48,112 nt of DNA from assembly GCA_937911525.1 (NCBI GenBank), contig CALDQK010000927.1, forward strand, positions 1 to 48,112. The letters run 5' to 3'. Origin of the DNA: an uncultured bacterium (lineage in GTDB: Bacteria > Planctomycetota > J058). Positions 16,414 to 48,112 of the stretch are shown piece by piece (position 1 is the stretch's first letter; each line of letters starts with the position of its first letter). The notes under the pieces were generated by a model that saw only the letters and a program-made list of their open reading frames with translations, did no database searches and was not told the origin of the DNA. The position numbers and the translations under genes are program-made.

Positions 16414-16902
16414 CTATTCAACGAGCTCCACAGACTTCGCCTTGAGCTTCCCGCCCTCGATCTGCCCGTCGATCTTGGCGCGGAGTCCGCTCTTGCCGCA
16501 AAAGGGCATGGAGCCGAGCCCGTGGTCGGTGATCTCGACGAAGGCGCCGTCGATCTTGGCGTACTCGCCGCAGTGACCCACCGCAGGGATCGAGCAGCCG
16601 CACGCGACGTCGTAGACCTTGGCGCTTGCGGCCTTCGGCTGTGCAGGCGCCGCGGCCCCGTCCTCGGACACCGGGACCAGGTCCATCTTGCAGGTGGGGC
16701 AGGTCCCTGGCTTCGGCTGCTTGACCTGCGGGTGCATCGAACACGTCCACTGAGACGCAGCGGCTCCTCCCTCGGCGGCCGGCGAGGGGTCGGAAGCCGG
16801 GGCCTCGTTCGCCGGAGCGGGCTCTGCTTGCTGGGTGGGCTCGCTCGGGCAGCCAGCGCAGAGCAAGGCCGTGGCGAGGAGGACGGGGTAGAAGCGGTTC
16901 AT
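16414..16902 (-). CDS. periplasmic metal-binding lipoprotein with heavy-metal-binding zinc-ribbon motif
   Basis: The true start is ATG 16902 (MNRFYPVLLATALLCAGC) with GGAG 7 nt upstream; the ORF-track N-terminal extension overlaps cusA. The protein contains WTCSMHPQVKQPKPGTCPTCKMDLVPV and a Cys/His-rich C-terminal domain (CGCSIPAVGHCGEY...FCG). Confidence 0.7.
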   Translation of the reverse strand: MNRFYPVLLATALLCAGCPSEPTQQAEPAPANEAPASDPSPAAEGGAAASQWTCSMHPQVKQPKPGTCPTCKMDLVPVSEDGAAAPAQPKAASAKVYDVACGCSIPAVGHCGEYAKIDGAFVEITDHGLGSMPFCGKSGLRAKIDGQIEGGKLKAKSVELVE

Positions 16903-16925: not shown

Positions 16926-21034
<4,109 letters not shown>

Positions 21035-21038
<4 letters not shown>

Positions 21039-23899
21039 TTCCCACCTCCCTTCTCGTCGCGCTCACGAACGGGGACGAGGTTCATGCCGCAGATCGGGCA
21101 CTTCCCGGGTCCTGGCTGACGAATCTGGGGGTGCATGGAGCAGGTCCAGCCTCCCGTCGGCTCCGCGGGGCGCGAGCTGGGCTGCGGCGTGGGCGCGGCG
21201 TCAGCCGGAGGAGCTGCTGCCGGGTCGCGTCCGGAGGCCGGGATCGACTCGACCTGCCGTCCGCAGCGCAACATGCGCGACCCGAAGTAGGGGTTGAGGA
21301 CCTGCTCTCCCTCCTGCAGCCAATCTGCGCCGCGGTTCCCGAAGGCCATGGGGCAGTGGAAGCGCCGCACCGAGCGTTGTGGAAGGTGCCCATAGCGGGA
21401 GACGACGGCGGTCAGCTTCGTCGAGAGGGGCTCGAACGCCTGGCGCTGGGCCTCCAATCCGGCTGCCTGTTCGAGGTTTTTCACATCGGCGAGCAATCCT
21501 GGGAGACGAGTCTGACGCCAAACGTCGCGGTCGGCCGAGGGGAGCTGAGCGGGGTCGACGCCCTCGAGCGCTCGGCGCAGCTCCGGAGCGCGGGTGGCTC
21601 CCGTCGCCTTGTCCTCGGCCAGCTCCCGCTGGAGGTTGAAGTAGGCCGCCAGCGCTCCGTCCAGCTGGCGGCGGAACGTGTCGAGACTGGCGCCAGAGTC
21701 CTGCCCGGGCGTCGGCGTCGGGCTTGGGGCTGGCGACTCGGGCTGAGCAGGGGGCTGACCGTGGCCCTCATGTCCCGGCGGTGTGGCGTGGTCATGGCCT
21801 TCATGACCTGTCGGTGCCGGCGTGGCCGGCTGCTGCGGGCGCTGTGGCTCCTCCCCCCGGGCCGGGAAGGTGGAGCGGACCTCACCGCAGCGGAGCATGC
21901 TGGCCCCGAAGAACGGGTTCTGAACCTCCTCGCCCCGCTGCAGCCAGCTCGCACCCTTGTTGTCGCGGGCCATGGGGCAGAACGCCTCGCGATAGACCCC
22001 TTGGGCGTGCCCGAATTGGCGCTCCACGTCGAGCGCGGCCTCAGCCAGGTCGGCGAAGCTCGCGCGCGCCGCATCAATGCTCTCCGCCGTGGAAATCGCC
22101 TCCGCCGCGTCGCGCAGGCGCTTCGCTTCGCGCATCCAGGCCATGTGCCCGTCGCCGCTGACGAGCTTCATGTCGACGCCTTGGATCGCCGTCGCGAGGA
22201 TGCTGGCCGCGGTCTTGGCCGCGGCCAGGTCGTCCCCCGCCAGGGCCTCCTGCACGGCCAGGTAGCCCTCATAGACGGGGCGCAGCGCCGCCAGGAACGC
22301 TGGCGTCGCTTCGTGGCGCTGGGTTTCTCGGCGGCCCGCCGGCGGGAGCATCATGCTCGGCCGCGCCTCGATCTGAAGTGCGCTGTCGATCTTGAAGGCC
22401 CCCTTCGTCACGACTAGGTCGCCCTCCGAGAGCCCCGAGCGGACGATGTAGAAGTCGCCGGCCCGAGGGCCGAGGACGATCTCCTGGCCGCGAAACGAGG
22501 GCTGATCGCCTGGCTGCTTCACGTAGACCAACGAACGGACCCCGGTCCAGAGCACCGCCGACGCCGGCACGACGAGCGGAGGCTTGGCTTGTGGGTCGCC
22601 CGTCCGGTGCAGGGACTCCGCGCGGACGAGGGGCATGCCGCACTGGTCGCACTGGCCCTGGGCGTCCTTGATCACGTCCCAGTGCATGGGGCAGATCCAC
22701 TTGCCGACCAAGCTCGGATCCAGGGTCTGCCCCTCGGCCTGGAGGGGAGCCTTCAACACCGCGCGGACGAACATGCCGGGCTTCAGCCGCCCGTCGGCGT
22801 TGGTCACGTTCAAGCGGACCTTCACCGTGCGGGTGTTGCCGGTCAGGACCGGGTCCACGAACACCACCCGCCCTTCGAAGGGGACGCCGGGATAGGACTC
22901 GGTCTCGAACTGGACCGTCTGACCGTACCGGACCCAGGGCAGGTCCGACTCGTAGGCGTCTAGCTGGACCCACACCTGGCTCAGGTCCGCGATCGTGTAG
23001 ACGCGCTCGCCCGTGTTGACGTAGTCGCCGGTGTTCTTGTTCTTGTGGACGACGATCCCGCCGATCGGCGCGCGGATCGTGATGTGGTCCGAGGTCCGAC
23101 CGCTGCGCTCGATCTCCTCGATCTGATCTCGCCCCAGCCCCCACAGCCGCAGCTTCTCGCGGGCGGATGCCACGGTCTGGTCGGCCGTCTCGAGCATCAA
23201 GCGGCTGCTACTCGCCTGCAGCTTCTTGCGGGCCTCGATCGCCTGCAGCAGCTCCTCCTGGGCGCTCAGGAGCTGCGGGCTGTAGATCTCGACCAGGTGG
23301 TCGTCCTTGCGGACGAGGGTGCCTGTGTAGTCCACGTACATGCGGTCGAGCCGCCCGGGGATCCAGGCCGTGATGTAGTTGAGCCGGGTCTCGTCGTAGT
23401 CGACCTTGCCCACCATGCGGACGTCGCGGGCGACGTCGCGTCGCCGGACGGGCTCAGTCTCGATCTCGGCCAACGTCACCGCGTTTGGCTGCAGCTTCAG
23501 CTCACGGGGGCCCGAGTCGTCACCGCCCTCGCCGACGGGGATCAAGTCCATGCCGCAGATGGGGCACTTCCCAGGCTTCGGGCTACGGATCTGGGGGTGC
23601 ATGGAGCACGTCCACACCGTGGGCTTGTCGTCCGCCGCGGTCTGGCCCTCGGCCGGGGGAGGCGAGGCCTCGGGCGAGGTCAGTCGCCCCAGGAGCAAGC
23701 CGACGAGGAGAAAGACCACCGCGCCCGCGACCCAGCGGGCTCGCTGCCAGCGCGGGGCTTCCGGTTCTGCGGGAGTCGGCTGCGGCGTCGGAGCCTTCGG
23801 CTCCTCCGCGGAGGCGGTCGGCTTGGTGTCGTCCGCCGCGTCGGCCGGCGTGGTGTCGTCTGCCGAGTCGGTCGGCTTGGGTTCGTCGTGGTTCGTCAT
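21035..23899 (-). CDS. cusB: CusB-like periplasmic adaptor fused to three metal-binding zinc-ribbon motifs and two DUF3347-like modules (954 aa)
   Basis: The MFP core is recognisable (hairpin, lipoyl and beta-barrel segments, e.g. IRAPIGGIVV, VWVQLDAYESDL). Three zinc-ribbon motifs are present: WTCSMHPQIRSPKPGKCPICGMDLIPV, WICPMHWDVIKDAQGQCDQCGMPLV and WTCSMHPQIRQPGPGKCPICGMNLVPV. Two FxCPM..W(L)Q..NP(F/Y)FG..MLRCG modules and a His-rich linker (GHEGHDHATPPGHEGHG) are also present. Confidence 0.85.
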
Positions 23900-27786: not shown

Positions 27787-27808
27787 GGCATTTCAGATCT
27801 GAAATGCC
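27787..27808. promoter_or_regulatory. perfect 22-bp palindrome GGCATTTCAGATCTGAAATGCC, candidate enhancer-binding-protein site
   Basis: Read directly. It is centred between divergent -24/-12 elements, about 80-95 bp from each. The same core recurs at 40514-40527, with degenerate copies near 40471, 44105 and 44254. Confidence 0.6.
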
Positions 27809-33013: not shown

Positions 33014-33304
33014 TCACTGAGCGGCGCACTGCGGGCACTCCTGCACGATCAGCCGGCACTTCGAGCAGTAGTGCACAGTCCCAGGCGGGGTGATCTCGTT
33101 GTTGTAGTCGACCTCGGTCTCGCACTTCGGGCACACGTGGCGATCGACGGTCAGAACCTCGAACACCGTGGTGCGGGTCTGCTCGCTGCAGCTCGGACAC
33201 ACCGGGCTCGCCTCCTCCTTCACTACCTGCCCCGGCGTCGCGCAACCTGGCAGACCCAGGCCGATCGCGAGCGCGGCCGCCAGCGTGAACGTCCTCCAGC
33301 TCAT
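33014..33304 (-). CDS. small lipoprotein with four CxxC pairs (8 Cys)
   Basis: The N-terminus is MSWRTFTLAAALAIGLGLPGC (lipobox), followed by CPSC, CPKC, CSKC and CPQC. A GAGGAG RBS is present. It is a paralogue of the 43686-43991 product. Confidence 0.7.
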   Translation of the reverse strand: MSWRTFTLAAALAIGLGLPGCATPGQVVKEEASPVCPSCSEQTRTTVFEVLTVDRHVCPKCETEVDYNNEITPPGTVHYCSKCRLIVQECPQCAAQ

Positions 33305-33314
33305 GAACTTCTCC

Positions 33315-34157
33315 TCACGGCGCCATGGCCGCGATGTGGCGCTGCGAGAGCACCTCGAGCATTTCCTGCGTGATCCCCTCCTGGCGAGCCTTGCGGAGCA
33401 CGCGCTCCTGCTCGGCGATCCGCCGCTCCGCGGACTCGTGGGCGCGGGTCATGCGCGCCAGGCGAACGCTGGCTTCTGCCCGCGCGCCTTCGCAGGCGGC
33501 GTGCAGGATGCGCGCGTGAGCGAGGAGCGACCGCGCGCGGGTGTGCGCGACGTCGGCGGGAGCGAACTGAGCCAGGGGTCGGGCGAGGGCTGCCCGCGCC
33601 TCCGCCAGCCCCGCGAGGTCGCTCCCGACGTCCCAGGAGGTCTCGACCTGGGGGCTCCCGCCGCGGGAGACCCCGGTGGCGGAGACGATGCACAGGCGCG
33701 TCCTGAGCCCCGCGTCCCCGACCTCAGCCTCGACGCGCTCGGCGAGCTCGACGGCGGCGGCCATGCTGGACGGCGCTGGCTCCTCCAGGCGGGGGACGTC
33801 GTCCGGGAGCAGGTCCAGCAGCCGCGCCCCACACGCCGCGAACAGGACGACCTGCTGCTCCTCGACCACCTGGAGCGCGGCGTCGGCCACCAAGCGGTTG
33901 AGACGTCCGCAGAGCCCGAGGTCCGTCCCCAGCGCGAGGACCGCGCAGGTGGCGGGGGGACGACGCCGGTGGCGGTCTTCCCAGCGCTGGACGCGCTCGT
34001 GGAACGCCTGGCTCCAGGCGAGCTGACGGCGCGTGTGGGCGACCTGCGCGTTCCAACGCAGGACCTGTGCCGCCGCCAGCGACCGGGTGGCGTGGGCGAC
34101 GTCGCGGAAGCTCCGCCACGCCTTGAGTCGCTCCTCCAGCGCCCGGACGGCCTTCAC
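33315..34157 (-). CDS. atpG: N-ATPase gamma subunit
   Basis: The 280-aa ORF is the last gene of an atpDCQRBEFAG-ordered cluster. Its GTG start overlaps the alpha subunit stop. A gamma-like helical N-terminus and C-terminus are present. Confidence 0.75.
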   Translation of the reverse strand: MKAVRALEERLKAWRSFRDVAHATRSLAAAQVLRWNAQVAHTRRQLAWSQAFHERVQRWEDRHRRRPPATCAVLALGTDLGLCGRLNRLVADAALQVVEEQQVVLFAACGARLLDLLPDDVPRLEEPAPSSMAAAVELAERVEAEVGDAGLRTRLCIVSATGVSRGGSPQVETSWDVGSDLAGLAEARAALARPLAQFAPADVAHTRARSLLAHARILHAACEGARAEASVRLARMTRAHESAERRIAEQERVLRKARQEGITQEMLEVLSQRHIAAMAP

Positions 34158-35689
34158 GTGGTCCTCCCCGCTGGCTGCGGCGCCAGCGCTGTCTCGGCAG
34201 CCTCCTTCAGGGCGTCGAGCTGGGCCTGGGGCGGGAGGTGCCCTTGCTCCAGCTCGCTCCAGGCGGCGGGATCGCGCTCACGCATGGCCGCCAGCGCCCG
34301 ATCCAGCGCGTCGTCCAGCTCGTCGACGGGGATCTGCGCGACAGCGTCGGTGTCGAGCGCGAGCACCTGCGCCACGGACTCGGCCCACCCCAAGGCTTCG
34401 CCTCGCTCCTGGCGCAACGCGCGGCGCACGCGACGCCCCCACTCGATCAGCTGCTGCGCCTCGCTCTCCAGGCGAGAGCCGAAGCGGGCGAAGACCTCGA
34501 ACTCGAGGAACTGGGCGTATTGGTTCTTCAGCGGCCCCGCCACGCGCTTGAGCGCCTGGGGCTGGGCCTTGCCGCCGACGCGCGAGACCGAGAGGGACAC
34601 GTCCACGGCCGGGATCTGGTCGGCAGCGGCCAGCGCCGTGTCGAGCCGGATCTGCCCGTCGGTGATCGACACGATGTTCGTGGGGACGAAGGCGGAGAGA
34701 TCCCCGGCCTGGGTCTCGACGATCGGGAGCGCGGTCAGGGAGCCCCCGCCGCTGGCGCGTCCGAGCTGGGTCGCCCGCTCCAGCAGGCGGGCGTGGGCGA
34801 AGAACACGTCCGCCGGGAAGGCCTCGCGACCTACGGGACGGCCGAGGAGGAGGGCCAGCGAGCGGTGGACGTGGGCGTGGGTCGTCAGGTCGTCGTAGAC
34901 GATCAGCACGTCGCGCCCGGCGCGCATCAGGTCCTCGGCCATGGCGGTGGCGCTGTAGGGGGCCAGGTGGATCAGCCCGAGCGGGTCGTCGGCGTCCGAG
35001 GTGACGACGAATCCGCGCTCCAGCACGCCAGCCGCGCGCAACCACTCGACGTTGGCGGCGACCTCGGCGCCGCGGCGGCCAACGGCGACGTAGATCGCGA
35101 CCACGTCGGGGTCCTGCGCGGCGAGGATGTCCAGGCAGAGCTCCGTCTTGCCGGTCGAGCGGTCTCCGACGATGAGCTGTCGCTGGCCCCGGCCCACGGG
35201 GATCATGGTGTCGAGGACGAACACGCCGGTCCGCAGCGGCCGCGAGACCGGCTCCCGCTCCTCGAGCGCGATCGGCGGCCCGTCCACCAGCACCCGGCGC
35301 CGGGCCCGCAGCGGCCCCTGGCCATCGCGTGGTTGGCCCAGCGGGTCGACGACCCGGCCGATCAGCTCGGGTCCCGCCGGGACGTCGAGCACGCGCCCCA
35401 GCCGGCGTACGGGGTCGCCGGCCTCGACCTGCTCGGGGTCACCCATGAGCACGAGGCGCATGACGTCGCGGGTGATCGCGTCCACCCGGGCCGCCACGCC
35501 GTTCACGTCCAACAGCTCTCCGGCGAGGGGCTCGTCCAGCCCGGTCGCCAGGGCGACCCCGTCACCCGCCCGGCTCACCCGCCCCAAGCGCACCAGGTCG
35601 ACGCGGGGGCGGGCGCGGTCCAGCCCGCGGCGAAGGCGCTCCAGCGCCTCCGCGCCTGACTGCTGGTGCTCCTGCTCGCGCTCGGTCAC
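34154..35689 (-). CDS. atpA: N-ATPase alpha subunit
   Basis: Walker A GDRSTGKT, DDLTTHA and typical alpha-subunit length and layout. Confidence 0.9.
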   Translation of the reverse strand: MTEREQEHQQSGAEALERLRRGLDRARPRVDLVRLGRVSRAGDGVALATGLDEPLAGELLDVNGVAARVDAITRDVMRLVLMGDPEQVEAGDPVRRLGRVLDVPAGPELIGRVVDPLGQPRDGQGPLRARRRVLVDGPPIALEEREPVSRPLRTGVFVLDTMIPVGRGQRQLIVGDRSTGKTELCLDILAAQDPDVVAIYVAVGRRGAEVAANVEWLRAAGVLERGFVVTSDADDPLGLIHLAPYSATAMAEDLMRAGRDVLIVYDDLTTHAHVHRSLALLLGRPVGREAFPADVFFAHARLLERATQLGRASGGGSLTALPIVETQAGDLSAFVPTNIVSITDGQIRLDTALAAADQIPAVDVSLSVSRVGGKAQPQALKRVAGPLKNQYAQFLEFEVFARFGSRLESEAQQLIEWGRRVRRALRQERGEALGWAESVAQVLALDTDAVAQIPVDELDDALDRALAAMRERDPAAWSELEQGHLPPQAQLDALKEAAETALAPQPAGRTT

Positions 35690-36414
35690 GCGGGCTCCTC
35701 GGCCGCGTTGGCCTCGTCCAGCTCGGTGAGCCAGCGCTTCAAGGCGGCCCCGGCGCTGGCGTCGACCTCCAGGTCGCGGAAGGCGAAGCGGACGCCGCCG
35801 ACCAGCTCCGGGTCGGCGTCGGTCTGGAGCGCGCAGCGGTCGTGGAGCACCTTGCCGACGACCTGCCGCACGTCGTCAGGGTCGGCGTCCGGGCTGGTCC
35901 AGAGGCGGACGGTGGCGTCCTGCGGCAGCGCCCCCGCCTCCAGGAGACGCCGCGCGCCCTCTCGGGCGTAGGCCGTGGCGATGCTCGTCTCCGACATGCC
36001 CGCCACGACCTTGGCGGCGCCCTGGACGGAGAGGGCCACCACCTGATCGCGCAGACTCTCCAGCGAGCGGAGGCGGGCGAGCTCGAGGTCCGTCTGGTGG
36101 CGTTCCCGCGCCTGGTCCATGTCGCGTCGAGCGGCGGCGACGATGTGCTCGGCCTTCTCCTCGGCCTCCCGGCGGACCTCCGCTCGCAGCCGCTCCCCCT
36201 CCTGCTCGGCGCCCGCGATCTTGGCCCGGTACTCGTCGCGCAGCGCGGCCGCCTCGGCCTGCTGCGCGGCGAGCTCGGCGTTGCGCTGCTCGATCTCGGA
36301 CCGGCGCGCGGCGAGGGCCTCGCGGACGGGTCGGAACAGGAAGCGGCCGAGCAGGACCATCAACACCACGAAGTTGAGGAGCTCGAACAGGACCAGGCGC
36401 CAGTCGATGGACAC
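35686..36414 (-). CDS. atpF: N-ATPase b subunit with delta-like C-terminal extension
   Basis: An N-terminal TM helix is followed by a long charged helix and an extra ~90-aa C-terminal domain. There is no separate atpH in the cluster. Confidence 0.75.
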   Translation of the reverse strand: MSIDWRLVLFELLNFVVLMVLLGRFLFRPVREALAARRSEIEQRNAELAAQQAEAAALRDEYRAKIAGAEQEGERLRAEVRREAEEKAEHIVAAARRDMDQARERHQTDLELARLRSLESLRDQVVALSVQGAAKVVAGMSETSIATAYAREGARRLLEAGALPQDATVRLWTSPDADPDDVRQVVGKVLHDRCALQTDADPELVGGVRFAFRDLEVDASAGAALKRWLTELDEANAAEEPA

Positions 36415-36423
36415 GTCGTCGAC

Positions 36424-36678
36424 CTAGGGGAGGAGGGGGTTGGCGAACAGGAGGATCAGCGCGATCACCAGGCAGTAGATCGCGGTCGACTCGACCATGG
36501 CCATGCCGACGAACAGCGTGCGGGTCAGGGTCGAGGCCGACTCTGGTTGCCGCGCGATGGCGTCCAGCGCGGCTGCCAGGCCGCGCCCTTCGCCGAGGGC
36601 AGAGCCGATCGACCCGAGCGCGACCGTGAACCCGGCCGTGGCGATGGAGATGAACGTGATCAGGGCTTGGTCGCTCAT
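36424..36678 (-). CDS. atpE: N-ATPase c subunit, Na+-binding type
   Basis: The true start is ATG 36678 (MSDQALITF...), giving 84 aa. ARQPE in helix 1 and [20 protein letters not shown] in helix 2 match the Q/E/S/T/Y Na+ site of the Ilyobacter tartaricus c ring. Confidence 0.85.
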   Translation of the reverse strand: [84 protein letters not shown]

Positions 36679-37355
36679 GCGGCCTCCTGGGGGGTGCGAT
36701 CGCGCCGCTCGACTTGAACGGCGGCCGCGATGTAGACGGCGGCGAGGATCCCGAAGATGTAGGCCTGGATCAGGCCAGTGAGCAGACCCAGCACGAGCAG
36801 CGGGACGGGCACCAGCACGCCCGCGACCAGCAGCACGATCGCCCCGATCATTTGTCCGCTCATGACGTTCCCGAACAGGCGGACGCAGAGCGCGAGGGTG
36901 CGCGTCAGCTCGCCGATGATGTTCAGGGGCAGCAGGATCGGGCTCGGCTTGGCGTAGCGGCGCAGGTACTCCCACAGGCCGTGTCGGCGGATCCCGAAGT
37001 AGGGGACGGCGACGAACACCACCAGGGCCAGGGCGACCGCGGTCGAGAGCTCGGCCGTGGGTGGCCGCAGGAAGGGCACCACCGAGAGGCAGTTGCTGAC
37101 GGCGATGAACAGCATCAGGGTCCCGATCAGCGACACGTAGGGCGTGGGGTCTTCCTCCACGACCTCCGAGACCGTCTGCTCGATCCAACCCGCGAACAGC
37201 TCGATCCCCGTCTGCCAGAGCGTGAGCCCCGAGGTCTGCAGCCGCCTGGATGCAAGGGCGCACAGGCCGACCAGGAGCACCGTGAGCCCGAGCGTGATGA
37301 ACACGACGTCGGGGACGTCCCAGCCGAGAATGGGGATCGTGAACTGCGGGTTCAC
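36675..37355 (-). CDS. atpB: N-ATPase a subunit
   Basis: The GTG at 37355 overlaps the atpR stop, with GGAGG upstream. A conserved LCVRLFGNVMSG (stator Arg) motif is present. Confidence 0.85.
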   Translation of the reverse strand: MNPQFTIPILGWDVPDVVFITLGLTVLLVGLCALASRRLQTSGLTLWQTGIELFAGWIEQTVSEVVEEDPTPYVSLIGTLMLFIAVSNCLSVVPFLRPPTAELSTAVALALVVFVAVPYFGIRRHGLWEYLRRYAKPSPILLPLNIIGELTRTLALCVRLFGNVMSGQMIGAIVLLVAGVLVPVPLLVLGLLTGLIQAYIFGILAAVYIAAAVQVERRDRTPQEAA

Positions 37356-37642
37356 GAGGTGACCTCCGCGGTCGGGTGGCCCTGTGACAGCCGCCAGCGC
37401 GCAGCGAGCCCGCCCAGGACGAAGCCCACCAGCCCGCCGCAGAGCGGGAGGAGGCCCCCGAAGCTCGAGGCGAAGAGCAGGCCCGCAGGCAGGGCGACCC
37501 GGAGGGGCGCGCCGAGGAGCAGGGACGCCGCGCTCTGCCGCTCGACCGCGCCTTCGACCCCCTTGAGGAGGAGCCGGGCGTGGACGGCCGCCGAGAGCGC
37601 GCCGGCCAGGAACCACAGCGAGACGATCAGCAGCGCGTTCAT
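37352..37642 (-). CDS. atpR: N-ATPase-specific small membrane protein AtpR
   Basis: The 96-aa protein has three hydrophobic helices with an intramembrane Arg. Its position between atpQ and atpB matches described N-ATPase operons. Confidence 0.65.
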   Translation of the reverse strand: MNALLIVSLWFLAGALSAAVHARLLLKGVEGAVERQSAASLLLGAPLRVALPAGLLFASSFGGLLPLCGGLVGFVLGGLAARWRLSQGHPTAEVTS

Positions 37643-38024
37643 GTCCCGTTCTCCTCAGCCTCCTGGATCGTCCTCCAGAAGAAGTAGCCGCCCATGCCCA
37701 GGCCCAGGAAGAGGAGGCCGATGGCCCAGGTGATCCCCGTGTCGAGGCGCATGTCGATCAGGTGACCCAGGAATGCCCCCAGGACCGGCGGCAGGGCGAT
37801 CAGCCAGCCGAGCGTCCCCACCTGGGCGACGGTCCGCCACAGGCTGCCCGCGGGCTCTCGTGAGGCCCTCAGGCGCTCGGTCTTCTGCCGCTCGATCCGA
37901 TCGATCAGCACGCGGTCGGTGGGATGGCGCGAGCGGGGGAGCCCCTCGTCCTCGGGGGCCTCAGGCTCCCCCTGGGGCGGCGTCGCCGGCTGCTGCGCGT
38001 CTTCCGGGCGAGGCGGGGACTCGG

Positions 38025-38028
<4 letters not shown>
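37639..38028 (-). CDS. atpQ: N-ATPase AtpQ (AtpI-like) membrane protein
   Basis: The GTG at 38028 overlaps the epsilon stop (GTGA). A Pro/Glu-rich N-terminus is followed by two TM helices (VGTLGWLIALPPVLGAFLG; ITWAIGLLFLGLGMGGYFFW). The ORF-track N-terminal extension lies inside atpC. The start is uncertain. Confidence 0.6.
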
Positions 38029-40376
<2,348 letters not shown>

Positions 40377-40401: not shown

Positions 40402-40417
40402 TGCACATTTCAGGCCA
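40402..40417 (-). promoter_or_regulatory. possible sigma54 promoter for the DUF2231/N-ATPase operon
   Basis: The minus strand reads TGGCCT-gaaat-GTGCA with exact GG-N10-GC spacing. The predicted transcription start is about 15 nt upstream of the 40376 ATG, leaving the GGAGG RBS in the leader. Confidence 0.4.
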
Positions 40418-40470: not shown

Positions 40471-40527
40471 TTTCAGGTCTGCAAGTTCCCCGTCCTCTGG
40501 GAAGCAGGTCCTGTTTCAGATCTGAAA
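40471..40527. promoter_or_regulatory. two copies of the TTTCAGATCTGAAA motif (40471-40484 degenerate, 40514-40527 perfect)
   Basis: TTTCAGGTCTGCAA matches 12 of 14 positions and TTTCAGATCTGAAA matches 14 of 14. The latter extends to GTTTCAGATCTGAAATGCC, matching the 27787 palindrome. Both lie between divergent -24/-12 elements. Confidence 0.55.
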
Positions 40528-40598: not shown

Positions 40599-42137
40599 AT
40601 GACTGAGGACACGACGAACGGGGCGAGAGGTTGGCGGCTGGGTCTGCGCCACCGAATCCTCGTGCTCGTCTTCCTGGTCCCAGCCTCGGTCCTGGTGGTC
40701 GGCCTCCCGCTCCTGTTCGTCTCCCAGCACCGCAGGGCAGAGGCGGAGTTCAAGGACCGGCTTCGGTCTGAGGCAGACGTGCTGGCGCTGGCATTGGCGG
40801 ATCCTTGCGAGCGGGAGTGCCTCCATGAAGTGGAGCCTCCTGTTCAGCAGCTGCTGCAGAACGAGCCTGCGCTCATCTCCGTCGAGATCTTCGACCCCAA
40901 GAGCGGGACTCTGCTGGGCGCGTGGGGAGCGACGGGGCCAAAGCCAAGCGCGGCACAGCTCGGCAGTCCTGCGGGCAAGGTCTGGATCGAGGAGGAAGGA
41001 GAGGCGAACAGTGCGCTCCACGCTTCGGGGCACGTGTTCGCTGCCACCACGCCCCTCGCGACGAAGCGCTGGAAGGGCGAGGAACACCCCGTCCTGCGCC
41101 TGCGCGGCAACTCCCGCGCCTACAACGAGCGCGTGGTCCACATGCTGCTCCTGGCGTTGATACCGGGTGGCGTAGCAGGGGTCGGCGGGCTGCTCTTGGC
41201 GTTCTGGCTCAACCGGCGGCTGCGGAGCGCCGTGGCTTCGCTGCAGGATGCGACAGCGCGCATTGCGCGAGGAGAACTCACCGAGCGTGTGAACGTCCGC
41301 ACGGGAGACGAACTCGAGGACCTCGGTGAGGCCGTCAATCGGATGGCAACGGAGTTGGCGGAGCAGCGCGCCCGCTTAGACCGGAACGCGGAGGTCCTGG
41401 AAGAGAAGCTCAGCGCGCGCAGCCTCGAGCTCGAGAAGGCCAGGACCATTGCGGTCAACCAAGAGCGGATCGCGGCGATGGGAGTCCTTGCCGCGGGCGT
41501 CGCTCACGAGATCGGAAACCCACTCACCGCGATCTCTGCTGTCGTTCAGGGCATGCGCCGCCGAGAAGAGGGCGGCGGCAAGGTCGAGGTCCTGGCCGAG
41601 AACCTGGACCGAATTCGGCAGATCGTCCGCAGCTTGGTCGACTACGCCCGGCCCCCAGCCAACGACTGGCGTTCCTTGTCACTGAACGACCTGCTGCGCC
41701 GGACCTTGTCGCTGGTGAGCATGGACCCGCGCGCCAAGGAGGTCGACATGTCGACCGAGCTCGACCCGGAACTCCCCCGCGTCCGCTCCGTCGAGGACAA
41801 GGTCCAGCAGGTGTTCCTCAACCTGCTCCTGAACGCTTTGGACGCGCTGCCCGAGGGCAAGGGGCGGGTTCAGGTGACGAGCCGGAGCGAAGGCGATGAG
41901 GTCTGTGTACTCGTCGACGACAGCGGCCCCGGCGTGCCAGCCGAGCTGAAGGAGCGCATCTTCGAGGCCTTCTTCACGACCCGCGTGGAGCACGGCGGCA
42001 CGGGGCTGGGGCTCGCCGTGAGCGCGTCCCTGGCCGACGAGCTGGGCGGGCGCCTGGAGGTCGGAGACAGCCCGCTTGGCGGGGCACGGTTCACGCTGTG
42101 TCTACCCGTCAGCGCTTCGGAGGAGCGTGCCGTATGA
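40599..42137 (+). CDS. sensor histidine kinase (periplasmic domain-HAMP-HisKA-HATPase)
   Basis: The start was chosen at ATG 40599 (MTEDTTNG...). Two TM helices flank a ~150-aa periplasmic domain containing CERECLHE. Motifs are a HAMP region, an H-box VAHEIGNPL, an N-box LNLLLNALDA and a G-box GTGLGL. Confidence 0.85.
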   Translation: MTEDTTNGARGWRLGLRHRILVLVFLVPASVLVVGLPLLFVSQHRRAEAEFKDRLRSEADVLALALADPCERECLHEVEPPVQQLLQNEPALISVEIFDPKSGTLLGAWGATGPKPSAAQLGSPAGKVWIEEEGEANSALHASGHVFAATTPLATKRWKGEEHPVLRLRGNSRAYNERVVHMLLLALIPGGVAGVGGLLLAFWLNRRLRSAVASLQDATARIARGELTERVNVRTGDELEDLGEAVNRMATELAEQRARLDRNAEVLEEKLSARSLELEKARTIAVNQERIAAMGVLAAGVAHEIGNPLTAISAVVQGMRRREEGGGKVEVLAENLDRIRQIVRSLVDYARPPANDWRSLSLNDLLRRTLSLVSMDPRAKEVDMSTELDPELPRVRSVEDKVQQVFLNLLLNALDALPEGKGRVQVTSRSEGDEVCVLVDDSGPGVPAELKERIFEAFFTTRVEHGGTGLGLAVSASLADELGGRLEVGDSPLGGARFTLCLPVSASEERAV

Positions 42138-43483
42138 ACGTCAAAGGCGCGGTCCTGGTCGTGGACGACGAGCGCGCAATCCGCGAGGAGATCGGCGAAG
42201 CGCTGGAGGAAGCCGGCCATGAAGTCCGGCTGGCGCGAAACGCAGAGCAGGCGCTGGCCCTCCTGCGCGAGGCGCCAGCAGACGTCCTCCTCTCTGACTT
42301 GCGCATGCCGGGTATGGACGGTGTGGCGCTCCTCAAGGAAGTGCGGCGTGAGCGGCCGGAAGTGTCCGTCTTGCTCATGACCGCTTTCGCCTCGGTGGAG
42401 ACAGCGGTCGATGCGCTCAAGGCGGGTGCGTCGGACTACCTGCTCAAGCCGCTGGTGATCGACGAGCTGTTGACCAAGGTCGCGCACCTGCTGACCTTCC
42501 AGCACCTCTCGCGCGAGAACCGACGGCTCAAGGAGGAACTGTTGCGGAGCGGCGGCGAGTGCCACGTGGGCGCGAGCCCTGCCATGACCGAGGTTGCCCG
42601 GACCGTGGCCAGGGTGGCGCCGACCCGCTCCACCGTGCTGATCACGGGCGAGAGCGGCACGGGCAAGGACGTGGTCGCGAAGACCCTCCACCGCCTGAGC
42701 CAGTTGAGCGACAAGCCCTACGTGGTGGTCGATCTGGGCGCGATCCCCGAGGCGCTGTTGGAGTCCCTGTTGTTCGGGAGCGTGAAGGGTGCGTTCACCG
42801 GTGCGGCCGGCCGCAAGGGCCTGTTCCAGTCCGCGGACGGAGGGACGTTGTTCCTGGACGAAATCGGAAACCTGTCCCTGGAGGCGCAGGCGAAGCTGCT
42901 GAGGGCGATCGAGAGCGGCGAGGTGCTGCCCGTGGGTGGAACCCAGCCCGTGCGGGCCAAGTTCCGCCTGCTCGCGGCGACCAATCGTGACCTGGAAAAG
43001 GCCGTGGAGGCTGGGGAGTTTCGCCAGGACCTCTACTACCGCCTGAACGTGGTCCAGCTTCAGCTCCCGCCGCTTCGCGACCGCAGGGAGGACCTGCCGG
43101 GGCTGGCCCAGTGCCTGCTCACGAAGCTCAACGCCAGCTTGCGGACCAACTACTCGGAGGTCGACCCGGAGGCTTTGCTGCAGCTCATGGGCCACGACTG
43201 GCCCGGCAACGTCCGAGAGCTGCAGAACGTCCTGGAGCGGGCCATGGTCCTGGGAGACGGCATGACGATCCGCCCCGAGGACCTCCCCCTGGGCAAGGAG
43301 GAACCCGACGCGGTCGACATGGACCTCCGCCGCGCGGTCCGCCGTTTCGAACGAGGACACATTCAGCGCGCGCTAATCGCGGAAGGGTGGAGCCGCAAAG
43401 ACGCGGCCCGCAGCTTGGGTATCAGTACGACCTCGCTCTGGCGGCGGATGACCGAGTTGGGAATCGAGGAGCCAAGCGCCTAA
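42134..43483 (+). CDS. sigma54-dependent response regulator (NtrC family)
   Basis: The ATG at 42134 overlaps the kinase stop (ATGA). Motifs are REC (LLSDLRMPGMDG), AAA+ Walker A GESGTGKD, the GAFTGA loop and a C-terminal Fis-type HTH (AARSLGISTTSLWRRM). Confidence 0.9.
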   Translation: MNVKGAVLVVDDERAIREEIGEALEEAGHEVRLARNAEQALALLREAPADVLLSDLRMPGMDGVALLKEVRRERPEVSVLLMTAFASVETAVDALKAGASDYLLKPLVIDELLTKVAHLLTFQHLSRENRRLKEELLRSGGECHVGASPAMTEVARTVARVAPTRSTVLITGESGTGKDVVAKTLHRLSQLSDKPYVVVDLGAIPEALLESLLFGSVKGAFTGAAGRKGLFQSADGGTLFLDEIGNLSLEAQAKLLRAIESGEVLPVGGTQPVRAKFRLLAATNRDLEKAVEAGEFRQDLYYRLNVVQLQLPPLRDRREDLPGLAQCLLTKLNASLRTNYSEVDPEALLQLMGHDWPGNVRELQNVLERAMVLGDGMTIRPEDLPLGKEEPDAVDMDLRRAVRRFERGHIQRALIAEGWSRKDAARSLGISTTSLWRRMTELGIEEPSA

Positions 43484-43685: not shown

Positions 43686-43991
43686 TCACTCCTTCTGGCA
43701 CAACCGGCACGGCTCGACGATCGCGTCGCACTTGTCGCAGTAGTGGACCGTCTCGTCGAACTCCGTCCCTGCGTCCATTGTCTTGCAACGAGGGCAGAAG
43801 TGTCTCTTGTAGGTGAGGCCTTCGAAGACGAATGTCCGCGTTTCGGTTCTGCACTCCGGACAGACCTGACTCGTGTCCTCAGAGACGAGCTCCCCAGGCG
43901 TTTGGCAGCCGGGTGCTGCCGAGATGAGCAGCCCTATGACGATCGGCAGCAACCAGCTCGTAGATCGTCGTTTCATTCGTCTCCACTTCAT
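43686..43991 (-). CDS. small lipoprotein with four CxxC pairs, paralogue of 33014-33304
   Basis: The start was chosen at ATG 43991 (MKWRRMKRRSTSWLLPIVIGLLISAAPGC); an alternative ATG is at 43976. Motifs are CPEC, CPRC, CDKC and CRLC. It aligns with the other lipoprotein through TPG..V.E..S.VCP.C...TRT.VFE.LT..RH.CP.C...TVHYC.KC..IV..C..C. Confidence 0.65.
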   Translation of the reverse strand: MKWRRMKRRSTSWLLPIVIGLLISAAPGCQTPGELVSEDTSQVCPECRTETRTFVFEGLTYKRHFCPRCKTMDAGTEFDETVHYCDKCDAIVEPCRLCQKE

Positions 43992-44104
43992 ACGAGTGCC
44001 TTGCCTACGATTCGGGTCCGGGCCAGGGTGAGAGGGACGCACGCCTCGGCCCAAACTCCGAAGGGCGGTTCTGAGGCGAAGGCCACGAGTGTAACGGGTA
44101 GGCC

Positions 44105-44118
44105 TTTCACGTCTGAAA
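44105..44118. promoter_or_regulatory. degenerate copy of the TTTCAGATCTGAAA motif (TTTCACGTCTGAAA)
   Basis: It matches 12 of 14 positions. It lies in the divergent intergenic region between the CxxC lipoprotein gene and the triple-repeat protein gene. Confidence 0.35.
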
Positions 44119-44253: not shown

Positions 44254-44272
44254 TTCAGATTTCACATCTGAA
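44254..44272. promoter_or_regulatory. split inverted repeat TTCAGAT-ttcac-ATCTGAA related to the palindrome family
   Basis: The 7-bp arms are perfect and use the same TTCAGA/TCTGAA half-sites, but with a spacer. It lies about 45 bp upstream of a -24/-12-like element. Confidence 0.4.
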
Positions 44273-44316
44273 AGGCACTTGCTCTCCCCCCAAACGGAGC
44301 AACGGCATCTCTGAAG

Positions 44317-44332
44317 TGGTCCCGAAGCTGCT
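44317..44332 (+). promoter_or_regulatory. possible sigma54 promoter for the triple-repeat periplasmic protein gene
   Basis: TGGTCC-cgaag-CTGCT has GG-N10-GC spacing. The predicted transcription start is about 24 nt upstream of ATG 44367, which has a CAGGAG RBS. Confidence 0.35.
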
Positions 44333-44366: not shown

Positions 44367-45101
44367 ATGCGCATTCAGCCACTTCCCTTCCTCCTCCTTC
44401 TGACCCTGTTCCTTCTGCCTGCCAGTGCCTTGGCTCAAGGCACGAAGGACACGGCGGCAGACCCATACACGCTGACGACCTGCCCGATCTCAGGCAAGAA
44501 GCTGGGCAGCATGGGGGATCCCGTCGTCAAGTCCTACGACGGACGAGAGGTTCGCTTCTGCTGCGGCGGCTGCGTTGGGACCTTCGAGAAAGACAAGGCC
44601 AGTCAATTCAAGAAGATCAATGACAAGCTGATCGCTGACCAGAAGGCCCACTACCCGATCCCTGTGTGCGTCGTTTCCAAGGAGTCTCTCATGGAGAACG
44701 GCGAAGACGCTGGCATCGATGTCGTCGTCGGGAATCGCCTGGTTCGCCTCTGCTGTGAGGGCTGCACGAAGAAGCTGCTCAAGAACCCCAAGAAGTACTT
44801 GGCCCGGCTGGATAAGGCGATCGTGAAGGTCCATCGCAGCAAGTACCCACTCGACACCTGTGTCGTGGGCGGCGGCAAGCTCGGCTCAATGGGCAAGCCC
44901 GTCGAGACCGTGATTGGGAACCGCCTGGTTCGTCTCTGCTGCAAGGGTTGCTTGCCGAAGCTTAAGGCCAACCCGCACAAGTATCTGCCGAAGCTTGACG
45001 CGGCGTGGAAGCACAAGGCGGGCGCGAAGAGCCCCCACAAGGGGCACGAAGGCCAAGGCCACAACAAGGGCGGTCACGACCACAGCAAGCACAAGCACTA
45101 G
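44367..45101 (+). CDS. secreted triple-repeat Cys-rich protein with His-rich tail (putative periplasmic metal binder, TRASH/YHS-like repeats)
   Basis: The start was chosen at ATG 44367 (signal peptide MRIQPLPFLLLLTLFLLPASALA). Three ~65-aa repeats each have (Y)P..(T)C...(G)KLGSMG..V....GR.VR.CC.GC...(L/F).K.P.KY. The C-terminal tail is HKGHEGQGHNKGGHDHSKHKH. Confidence 0.75.
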   Translation: MRIQPLPFLLLLTLFLLPASALAQGTKDTAADPYTLTTCPISGKKLGSMGDPVVKSYDGREVRFCCGGCVGTFEKDKASQFKKINDKLIADQKAHYPIPVCVVSKESLMENGEDAGIDVVVGNRLVRLCCEGCTKKLLKNPKKYLARLDKAIVKVHRSKYPLDTCVVGGGKLGSMGKPVETVIGNRLVRLCCKGCLPKLKANPHKYLPKLDAAWKHKAGAKSPHKGHEGQGHNKGGHDHSKHKH

Positions 45102-45202: not shown

Positions 45203-45763
45203 TCAAGGACGGTGACCCCGGGGCTTCTTGCACGAGCAGTCCACGCAGCCATGCTCGGCGCACATACGGCAGAAGCCGAGGACCTCCTTGCGAAGGGCCT
45301 TTCGCGCCCGATGCACGCGCACCCCGGCGTTGTTCGCGGTGATCCCAACCTCCTGCGCGTAGTCTGCGAGCGACTTGCCCGCCAAGTCGACCTGCTCGAG
45401 GGCCATGGAGTAGTCGGGCTTCAGAGTGTCGACCAGGGCGCGGACGCACTGGCAGACCTGCTCGACGTGGCTCGGATTGGGCTCCGAGGCCTGCTCCAAC
45501 TGCTGGGCATATTCGGTGAGGCGGCGATCGGCGACCGCGGCGCGGCGGCTGCGGTCGATGATCGCGTTGCGCAGGACTCGATAGAACCAGGCGACGGCCG
45601 CCTCCTCGTCGCGGATCGAGTCGGCGCGCTCCACGGCTTTGGCCAGCGACTCCTGGAGGATGTCCTCAGCCAGGTCGCGGTCTCCCACCCGCCGCTCCAG
45701 GAACCCCAGGAACGCGCGTCGCTCCGCGAGCAGGCGGGCTGGGATACCCCCGTCGTCGGTCAC
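45203..45763 (-). CDS. ECF sigma factor with C-terminal Cys-rich extension (CorE-like)
   Basis: Region 2 (DLAEDILQESLAKA...WFYRVLRNAIID) and region 4 (ALEQVDLAGKSLADYAQEVGITANNAGVRVHRARKALR) are present. A linker CQC and a C-terminal FCRMCAEHGCVDCSCKK follow. There is no adjacent anti-sigma gene. Confidence 0.8.
   Translation of the reverse strand: MTDDGGIPARLLAERRAFLGFLERRVGDRDLAEDILQESLAKAVERADSIRDEEAAVAWFYRVLRNAIIDRSRRAAVADRRLTEYAQQLEQASEPNPSHVEQVCQCVRALVDTLKPDYSMALEQVDLAGKSLADYAQEVGITANNAGVRVHRARKALRKEVLGFCRMCAEHGCVDCSCKKPRGHRP

Positions 45764-45863: not shown

Positions 45864-48112
<2,249 letters not shown>

Follow-up and report, generated by a model that had tools for sequence, protein, structure and literature searches.

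An exported eight-cysteine lipoprotein family associated with copper efflux genes in Planctomycetota, a candidate periplasmic Cu(I)/Ag(I)-binding module

What is known of periplasmic copper handling comes almost wholly from proteobacterial Met/His proteins, such as CusF, CopC and PcoE. Small envelope proteins also participate in metal and thiol signalling: zraP is divergent from zraSR and is sigma-54 dependent, and the lipoprotein NlpE, which has a CxxC motif, first received its name from copper homeostasis. Proteins with four CxxC pairs are known from the double zinc ribbon families PF07191 and DZR, which are cytoplasmic and have no signal peptide. A review of bacterial copper homeostasis names CusF, CopI, CopG, CueP and others, and nothing of the eight-cysteine kind described below; CopG (CxCC motif, thioredoxin-like) and CueP are Cys-using periplasmic copper proteins linked to copA/cusCBA, and they matter mostly under anaerobic conditions (PMC7558416). 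Bufferins are Sec-exported peptides that contain Cys, carry an MNIO modification, bind copper and have a link to copper stress (bioRxiv 10.1101/2025.01.10.632315). A full-text literature search returned no description of a protein like the ones reported here, and the CorSR/curA operon of M. xanthus has no 8-Cys lipoprotein.

The contig analysed in this work (48,112 nt, referred to as the window) carries two genes of this kind, both on the minus strand. lipoA (33014..33304) encodes a 96-aa lipoprotein precursor with CxxC pairs at residues 36-39, 58-61, 80-83 and 90-93, and a GAGGAG Shine-Dalgarno sequence is located 6 nt 5' of its ATG. lipoB (43686..43991) encodes a 101-aa precursor which also has four CxxC pairs; an alternative start at 43976, with GGAG in front of it, corresponds to the start point of the orthologue P0005. 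The original prediction took the two products for paralogues, roughly 40-50% identical by eye, and quoted a shared motif string (TPG..V.E..S.VCP.C...). The BLASTP identity is 45% (E 8e-27) and the string is recovered in the family alignments. GC content at third codon positions is 0.89 in lipoA, 0.76 in lipoB and 0.81-0.91 in the neighbouring genes, and the differences between lipoA and its 95%-identical orthologue in another MAG are either synonymous or confined to a variable loop. Since GC3 is neighbour-like and the substitutions are distributed in this way, the data point to translated genes under purifying selection.

The genome to which the window belongs (G000) is a 10.2-Mb MAG, 90% complete and split into 1342 contigs; a whole-MAG search found lipoA and lipoB as its only two copies. 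A near-identical island is present in another Planctomycetota MAG. Orthologues of lipoA occupy the same slot in G230/L045 (95% identity) and in the metagenome contigs L037/L038 (73% identity), while an orthologue of lipoB (75% identity) was found at positions 626-922 of a TARA contig (L057) in the same NtrC / lipoB / YHSx3 arrangement. The NtrC, histidine kinase and YHSx3 genes flanking lipoB on this contig are 94-97% identical to those of the window, and outside its Cys scaffold lipoB evolves much faster than its neighbours. Codon 50 of lipoA (33155-33157) codes for Val (GTT). This position is Gly in 41 of the 51 aligned family members and Gly (GGC) in the 95-98% identical orthologues of lipoA (G230, P0001), a two-base difference that reflects either a real variant or an assembly error.

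Both precursors have the export signal and lipobox Cys originally predicted for them. The lipoA signal consists of MSWRTF, 16 hydrophobic residues and L-P-G-C21, and that of lipoB of six K/R, 19 hydrophobic residues and A-P-G-C29. Using [LVI][ASTVI][GAS]-C at the cleavage site as the lipobox criterion, we found the features of a lipoprotein signal (charged n-region, h-region and lipobox) in both proteins, with Pro at -2 being atypical. Across the family, the G at -1 is present in 46/51 members and the C in 50/51. Tat export was rejected, as judged by eye: there is no twin-arginine consensus S/T-R-R-x-F-L-K, the lipoA signal being devoid of RR and the signals of the lipoB clade having RR-S-x-x-W without the hydrophobic F-L-K context. 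From these signals we infer that lipoA and lipoB products are Sec-exported periplasmic proteins which would be lipid-anchored. The lipobox Cys is directly followed by Q-T-P-G (window positions 33229-33243 and 43892-43906), which is kept in 32-42 of the 51 members, is unusual for a lipoprotein tether and is absent from the Sec-type multi-module relatives described below; it may be a sorting signal or a part of the functional site.

Word-indexed protein search returned few members of the family and a locus search with narrower alignments just one genome locus and nine metagenome loci. The family was recovered by an exhaustive phmmer search of 1.84 billion representatives (50%-identity clusters), which returned 55 clusters with E <= 1e-3, 14 of them reaching E <= 1e-10. 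An alignment of 51 sequences shows six of the eight Cys in every member and the last two in 50/51, so the four CxxC pairs of the original prediction are conserved among homologues as it required. A T-R-T motif follows knuckle 1, and a His is found two residues before knuckle 2 in 28/51 members and before knuckle 3 in 37/51. Knuckles 2 and 3 are joined by a loop of variable length, and the spacing of knuckles 3 and 4 is just 6 residues. One member, P0058, lacks knuckles 2 and 4, a single case which may be a sequencing artefact; deduction of Cys pairing from degenerate members was abandoned, with P0058 as the only such sequence.

No Pfam or NCBIfam model reaches its cut-off for lipoA or lipoB, and the public names of family members are limited to 'hypothetical protein', from Lentisphaerae/Victivallales MAGs. 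Together with the lack of a PDB relative in the searches detailed below, this agrees with the earlier statement that the family is not a recognised one. Lentisphaerae/Victivallales and Planctomycetota members place its taxonomic range inside the PVC group. A search of 401 genomes of the phylum shows a patchy distribution: strong matches are confined to three other genomes, the genus is represented by two further genomes that gave none, and weaker matches come from two families (f37 and f89). In the phylogenetic tree lipoA and lipoB belong to two well-supported clades (99/94 and 99/96), each having its own conserved context.

lipoA is the eleventh gene of a compact operon. It is preceded by a DUF2231 gene and the N-type ATPase genes atpDCQRBEFAG (33315..40376, minus strand), and followed by genes for a beta-CASP metallo-beta-lactamase (MBL), a thymidine-phosphorylase-like, a PRPP-synthetase-like and a CBS protein. 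Its position between atpG and the MBL gene was indicated from the beginning; lipoA starts 10 nt after the former and ends 9 nt before the latter. lipoB lies tail-to-tail with the gene of an NtrC-type sigma-54 activator, which together with a sensor histidine kinase (HAMP-HisKA-HATPase) occupies 40599..43483 (plus strand); the pair is the predicted regulator of both lipoprotein genes. On the other side of lipoB, also as described originally, is a divergent gene whose secreted product has three YHS/TRASH-like repeats as well as a His-rich tail (44367..45101, plus strand). Then come an ECF sigma factor gene (45203..45763, minus strand), whose product has a Cys-rich C-terminal tail, CRMCAEHGCVDCSC, and the gene of a Cu-type P1B ATPase (45864..48110, plus strand; TIGR01511 509.6 bits vs cut-off 397), cut by the window end. 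A CusA/CzcA-family RND pump of 1370 aa and a long CusB-like adaptor are encoded at 16926..23899 (minus strand; TIGR00914 757 bits vs cut-off 701). The slot after cusA in the window (16414-16902, minus strand) is occupied by the gene of a different, 162-aa lipoprotein with an LLCAGC lipobox, an HMBD-like WTCSMHP...CPTCKM stretch and an additional Cys cluster; NCBIfam gave no match to this protein.

At least 13 of about 15 distinct contexts of the 8-Cys gene include CusA/CusB, a Cu-type P1B ATPase, YHS/TRASH, DUF2231, HK/NtrC or a Cys-tailed ECF sigma factor. In seven metagenome contigs (L039, L040, L048, L049, L053, L055 and L056) the gene is located directly 3' of cusA. Two copies follow cusA in L039 and L055, the L039 arrangement is repeated in L040, and in L049 the order is cusA, 8-Cys gene, P1B ATPase gene. 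The copy after cusA in L053 (8001-8286) contains in-frame stops or a frameshift and is either a pseudogene or affected by a sequencing error. Tandem paralogue pairs are common (L043, L050, L052, L055, L039). The 8-Cys gene adjoins that of a P1B ATPase in five genomes (G305, G203, G281, G296, G251), and in the first of these it is found after cusBA, between the P1B ATPase gene and an HMA-like sequence. An HK-NtrC pair adjoins it in G098, where the HK-NtrC-lipo genes are next to cusBA, and in L057. In G322 the gene is located between ECF/P1B and YHSx3, the adjacency of YHSx3 and the ECF sigma gene being common to G322 and the window. In L041 a member is found 3' of an ECF sigma gene, and the lipoA-slot operon of L037/L038, which come from a sediment metagenome, also includes a YHS gene. 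The region 5016-11315 of L041/L042 contains a lipoB-clade gene along with ECF sigma, thymidine-phosphorylase-like, PRPP-synthetase-like and Ser/Thr kinase genes; therefore, the nucleotide-salvage and kinase companions of the island recur elsewhere, without the N-ATPase. A Lentisphaerae locus with two tandem copies has no metal genes within 9 kb, and none were seen in the short contig L058.

G000 has about seven CusA/CzcA and three Cu-P1B genes scoring above the cut-offs in 10.2 Mb, which leaves only about 2% of its sequence at 10 kb or less from such a gene. The linkage of the family to Cus/CopA/YHS genes thus appears to be far beyond chance, as an estimate rather than a formal test and with related contigs not being independent. 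A second long-type CusA is encoded in contig C908 of the same genome (2388-6407; open frame of 1422 aa, 748 bits), with no 8-Cys gene at this locus.

A sister subfamily carries the same type of module in a different setting. These proteins begin with a standard Sec signal, lack a lipobox and contain 8-Cys modules as tandem pairs or triplets; profile-profile comparison by hhalign relates the modules to the lipoprotein family with a probability of 98.2% and E 2.8e-14. Two positions before knuckle 2 there is an invariant Met in the sister modules and mostly His in the lipoproteins, a His/Met swap which is typical of Cu(I) ligands. Many of the sister proteins also have an N-terminal His-rich stretch (HKHSEK...PEH) after the signal peptide. 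Their genes are located between copA and outer-membrane factor/cusBA genes, or at most 1.5 kb from cusA, cusB or a P1B ATPase gene. Such loci (L028:1363-1896, L035:9375-10780 and the comparable L006-L027) come from two further families of the phylum, one of the loci adjoining a multihaem cytochrome gene. Because two different export signals are found on one module, the sequences indicate that the 8-Cys module works outside the cytoplasm.

We propose that the mature domain of about 70 aa, an eight-cysteine module made of four CxxC/CPxC knuckles and two semi-conserved His, binds soft metal ions through its thiolates, most likely Cu(I)/Ag(I). In that case lipoA and lipoB products would serve the Cus-type RND pump and the Cu-P1B ATPase as a buffer or chaperone in the periplasm, in a role comparable to that of CusF, and could hand the metal over to CusB/CusA; the adjacent sensor kinase and sigma-54 activator would switch on both genes along with the efflux machinery. 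Metal binding, the identity of the metal and its transfer to CusB/CusA are all deduced from sequence and gene context. We give this interpretation, in which periplasmic Cu(I)/Ag(I) is bound or chaperoned through thiolates for the efflux machinery, about an even chance of being correct. Soft metal binding is suggested because of the strict Cys conservation on an exported module with a His/Met position beside a knuckle, and because the module is multiplied in secreted proteins and shows near-obligatory Cus/CopA/YHS linkage. The guess of a periplasmic Cu/Ag-handling role that the original prediction offered is backed by the neighbourhood in many unrelated contigs and by the secreted multi-module sister proteins encoded in copA/cus operons. 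In the six carrier genomes searched (G000 and five others) CusF (PF11604) was not found, which also counts in favour. Against it, four CxxC pairs more often form Zn(Cys)4 sites with a structural role or, in extracytoplasmic proteins, disulfides. lipoA is located in an N-ATPase / beta-CASP / nucleotide-salvage operon rather than in a pump operon, one Lentisphaerae locus is free of metal genes, and the -24/-12 element in front of lipoB is weak. Known periplasmic Cu(I) chaperones, moreover, mostly use Met/His (PMC7558416).

The palindrome TTTCA-N4-TGAAA occurs five times in the window vs 0.05 expected, and all five sites are within three intergenic regions: at 27791, before the kinase/cus operon and a K-channel gene; at 40471-40484 and 40514-40527, in the region separating the N-ATPase and HK/NtrC operons; and at 44105..44118 (TTTCACGTCTGAAA) and 44260..44273 (TTTCACATCTGAAA), between lipoB and the YHSx3 gene, where the original prediction had already pointed to palindrome-type sites. 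These are predicted to be binding sites (UAS) of the neighbouring sigma-54 activator. GG-N9-TGCA elements are found at the expected distance in the cus region, in the N-ATPase/HK-NtrC region and before YHSx3. Pattern searches returned the sigma-54-type promoter candidate TGGCCTGAAATGTGCA (40402..40417, minus strand) for the DUF2231 / N-ATPase / lipoA / MBL operon and the -24/-12 candidate GGTCCCGAAGCTGCT (44318..44332, plus strand) for the YHSx3 gene, for which the 44260 palindrome is the predicted UAS. The lipoB candidate TGGGCCGAGGCGTGCG (44038..44053, minus strand) was not returned by the -24/-12 pattern searches and was read directly from the sequence; GG-N9-TGC is kept in it, with 4 mismatches to the consensus. 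The predicted UAS at 44105 would lie about 83 nt upstream of the lipoB transcription start deduced from this element, a geometry like that of the other promoters, and sigma-54 control of lipoB is proposed on these grounds. Since palindromes and -24/-12-type elements precede both paralogues and the pumps, lipoA and lipoB plausibly belong to one sigma-54 regulon with them.

Such control would also suit a regulatory accessory, i.e. a lipoprotein whose cysteines sense periplasmic metal or thiol oxidation and which modulates the neighbouring kinase in the style of NlpE/CutF-CpxA or ZraP-ZraS, with no metal delivery to a pump. A thiol-redox sensor was also named as an alternative in the original prediction. 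Genes of the lipoB clade do adjoin HK-NtrC in the window, L057 and G098, the L041 member is found behind an ECF sigma gene, and both window copies are located behind the predicted sites of the activator, similarly to zraP. However, the commonest position of the family is directly after cusA with no regulator nearby, tandem pairs of paralogues are frequent, and the secreted versions with 2-3 modules resemble capacity (binding) proteins rather than sensors. We consider a regulatory function unlikely, even if it is the strongest competitor of the metal-binding interpretation.

Another alternative is purely structural. The eight Cys could hold two Zn(II) or form four disulfides in a small rigid domain that would be a protein-protein adaptor of the envelope, e.g., for tethering or assembly of the RND pump or N-ATPase, and would leave the transported metal unbound. 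The CPxC pattern agrees with this, as all sub-threshold matches are to zinc ribbons: PF12773 (DZR) gives the best Pfam scores, 16.6 bits for lipoA and 17.8 for lipoB vs cut-off 27.3, PF07191 gives 10.6 and 12.0 vs 25 bits, and the rest is zinc-finger noise. The tandem-module relatives pass PF07191, a 'double zinc ribbon' family, on summed score (34.8 and 28.7 bits vs cut-off 25). A sequence profile search of the PDB found generic zinc-ribbon matches with E >= 0.005, the best being the TFIIS-type ribbon 1qyp (E 0.005). Structure prediction was of low confidence, AlphaFold giving pLDDT 60 for full lipoA (17 sequences; about 67 in the domain) and 55 for mature lipoB (23 sequences), and the best Foldseek match of the lipoA model to the PDB has E 0.95. 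On these sub-threshold matches and models, the zinc-ribbon or rubredoxin fold that had been suggested for the knuckles is a putative one. Among the best 25 of 27 / 26 Pfam families for the two proteins (E up to 10) there are no rubredoxin (PF00301) or thioredoxin-fold families, no CusF (PF11604), CopG or CueP, and no LTXXQ or NlpE families; the only 'rubredoxin-like' match is zf-ChsH2 (E 1.9).

The periplasmic disulfide-forming enzymes DsbB and VKOR gave no match in G000 (90% complete), nor in four of the five other carriers, one of them a complete genome. VKOR is present in all three other searched genomes of the family to which the window belongs, with 2-4 matches each, and in 22% of the phylum. 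Because the three family relatives all have VKOR and the MAG is fragmented, absence of VKOR/DsbB from G000 is probably an assembly gap. The argument that the host has no disulfide machinery was downgraded for this organism, where disulfides are possible given VKOR in its relatives, and it holds for family f37, which carries the module and has VKOR in 0/11 genomes, DsbB being likewise absent from its one complete genome that was searched; this speaks against the structural explanation. The fast evolution of non-Cys positions seen in lipoB counts in favour of a structural role, but surfaces that evolve fast make a specific docking partner less likely. Ligand binding is the better fit for the repeated modules of the secreted proteins and for the conserved His/Met next to the knuckles. 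A structural role is likewise unlikely and comes second among the competitors of metal binding. Finally, a redox protein, with CPxC as a thiol-disulfide couple or a rubredoxin-like Fe site, which reduces Cu(II) to Cu(I) or repairs envelope proteins mis-oxidised by copper, seems very unlikely: CPxC is the active-site motif of thiol oxidoreductases too, copper stress leads to non-native disulfides in the periplasm and the fourth knuckle is predicted at a helix start (in the low-confidence AlphaFold models), but a thioredoxin fold would not fit into so small a domain, the thioredoxin-fold and rubredoxin families are missing from the Pfam matches listed above, and an electron donor of the DsbD/CcdA type is no regular neighbour.

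Overall, the metal-binding interpretation assigns to lipoA and lipoB a role of a known kind, that of an accessory metal-binding protein of efflux operons, and it is the module itself that is new. A more far-reaching version of it, which we propose tentatively and regard as less probable than not, is that the 8-Cys module represents the first exported zinc-ribbon-like all-thiolate domain for periplasmic Cu(I)/Ag(I), a PVC-superphylum counterpart of CusF that would be used either as a single lipid-anchored copy or as secreted 'sponges' of 2-3 modules, with the lipoA clade fixed in the N-type ATPase operon. A Cys-only exported module accompanying Cus pumps and CopA in Planctomycetota and Lentisphaerota would demonstrate a chemical solution different from the Met/His one, probably suited to low-oxygen habitats; the Planctomycetota carriers include a small-genome lineage that has multihaem cytochrome neighbours. 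It would also name a recurrent 'hypothetical protein' of metal-resistance islands and give it a testable function. The position of the lipoA clade between atpG and the beta-CASP hydrolase gene, if this version is true, would tie the enigmatic N-type ATPase to the metal-stress response and provide a handle on its co-regulation with copper efflux genes.

Comparison with the known systems sets the family apart from each of them. Bufferin genes are accompanied by those of an MNIO (DUF692) enzyme and a DUF2063 partner, unlike the 8-Cys genes: neither domain was found among the called neighbours of eight family members or the window genes scanned, and identity with a bufferin or RiPP precursor was rejected because no MNIO neighbours were found. 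PF07191 (Zn_ribbon_6) and PF12773 (DZR) proteins, e.g., E. coli YfgJ, likewise have about 70 residues and eight Cys in four CxxC pairs, but their spacing is unlike that of the 8-Cys family with its closely placed knuckles 3 and 4. ZraP-ZraSR of E. coli and NlpE/CutF-CpxAR similarly combine a metal- or thiol-responsive envelope protein with an adjacent two-component system, while most 8-Cys members, unlike ZraP and NlpE, to which they have no sequence similarity, follow cusA rather than adjoin a regulator. CopG and CueP are precedents for thiolate copper binding outside the cytoplasm, with folds and motifs different from those of the 8-Cys family. CusF, encoded in cusCFBA of E. coli, is an OB-fold beta-barrel with a Met2His + Trp site, soluble and with no sequence relationship to the 8-Cys proteins, which have eight Cys in four CxxC pairs and are predicted to be lipid-anchored. 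Both are small, exported and encoded in or beside a Cus-type RND operon, and the presumed role is common to them: to catch periplasmic Cu/Ag and pass it to CusB/CusA (PMC7558416).
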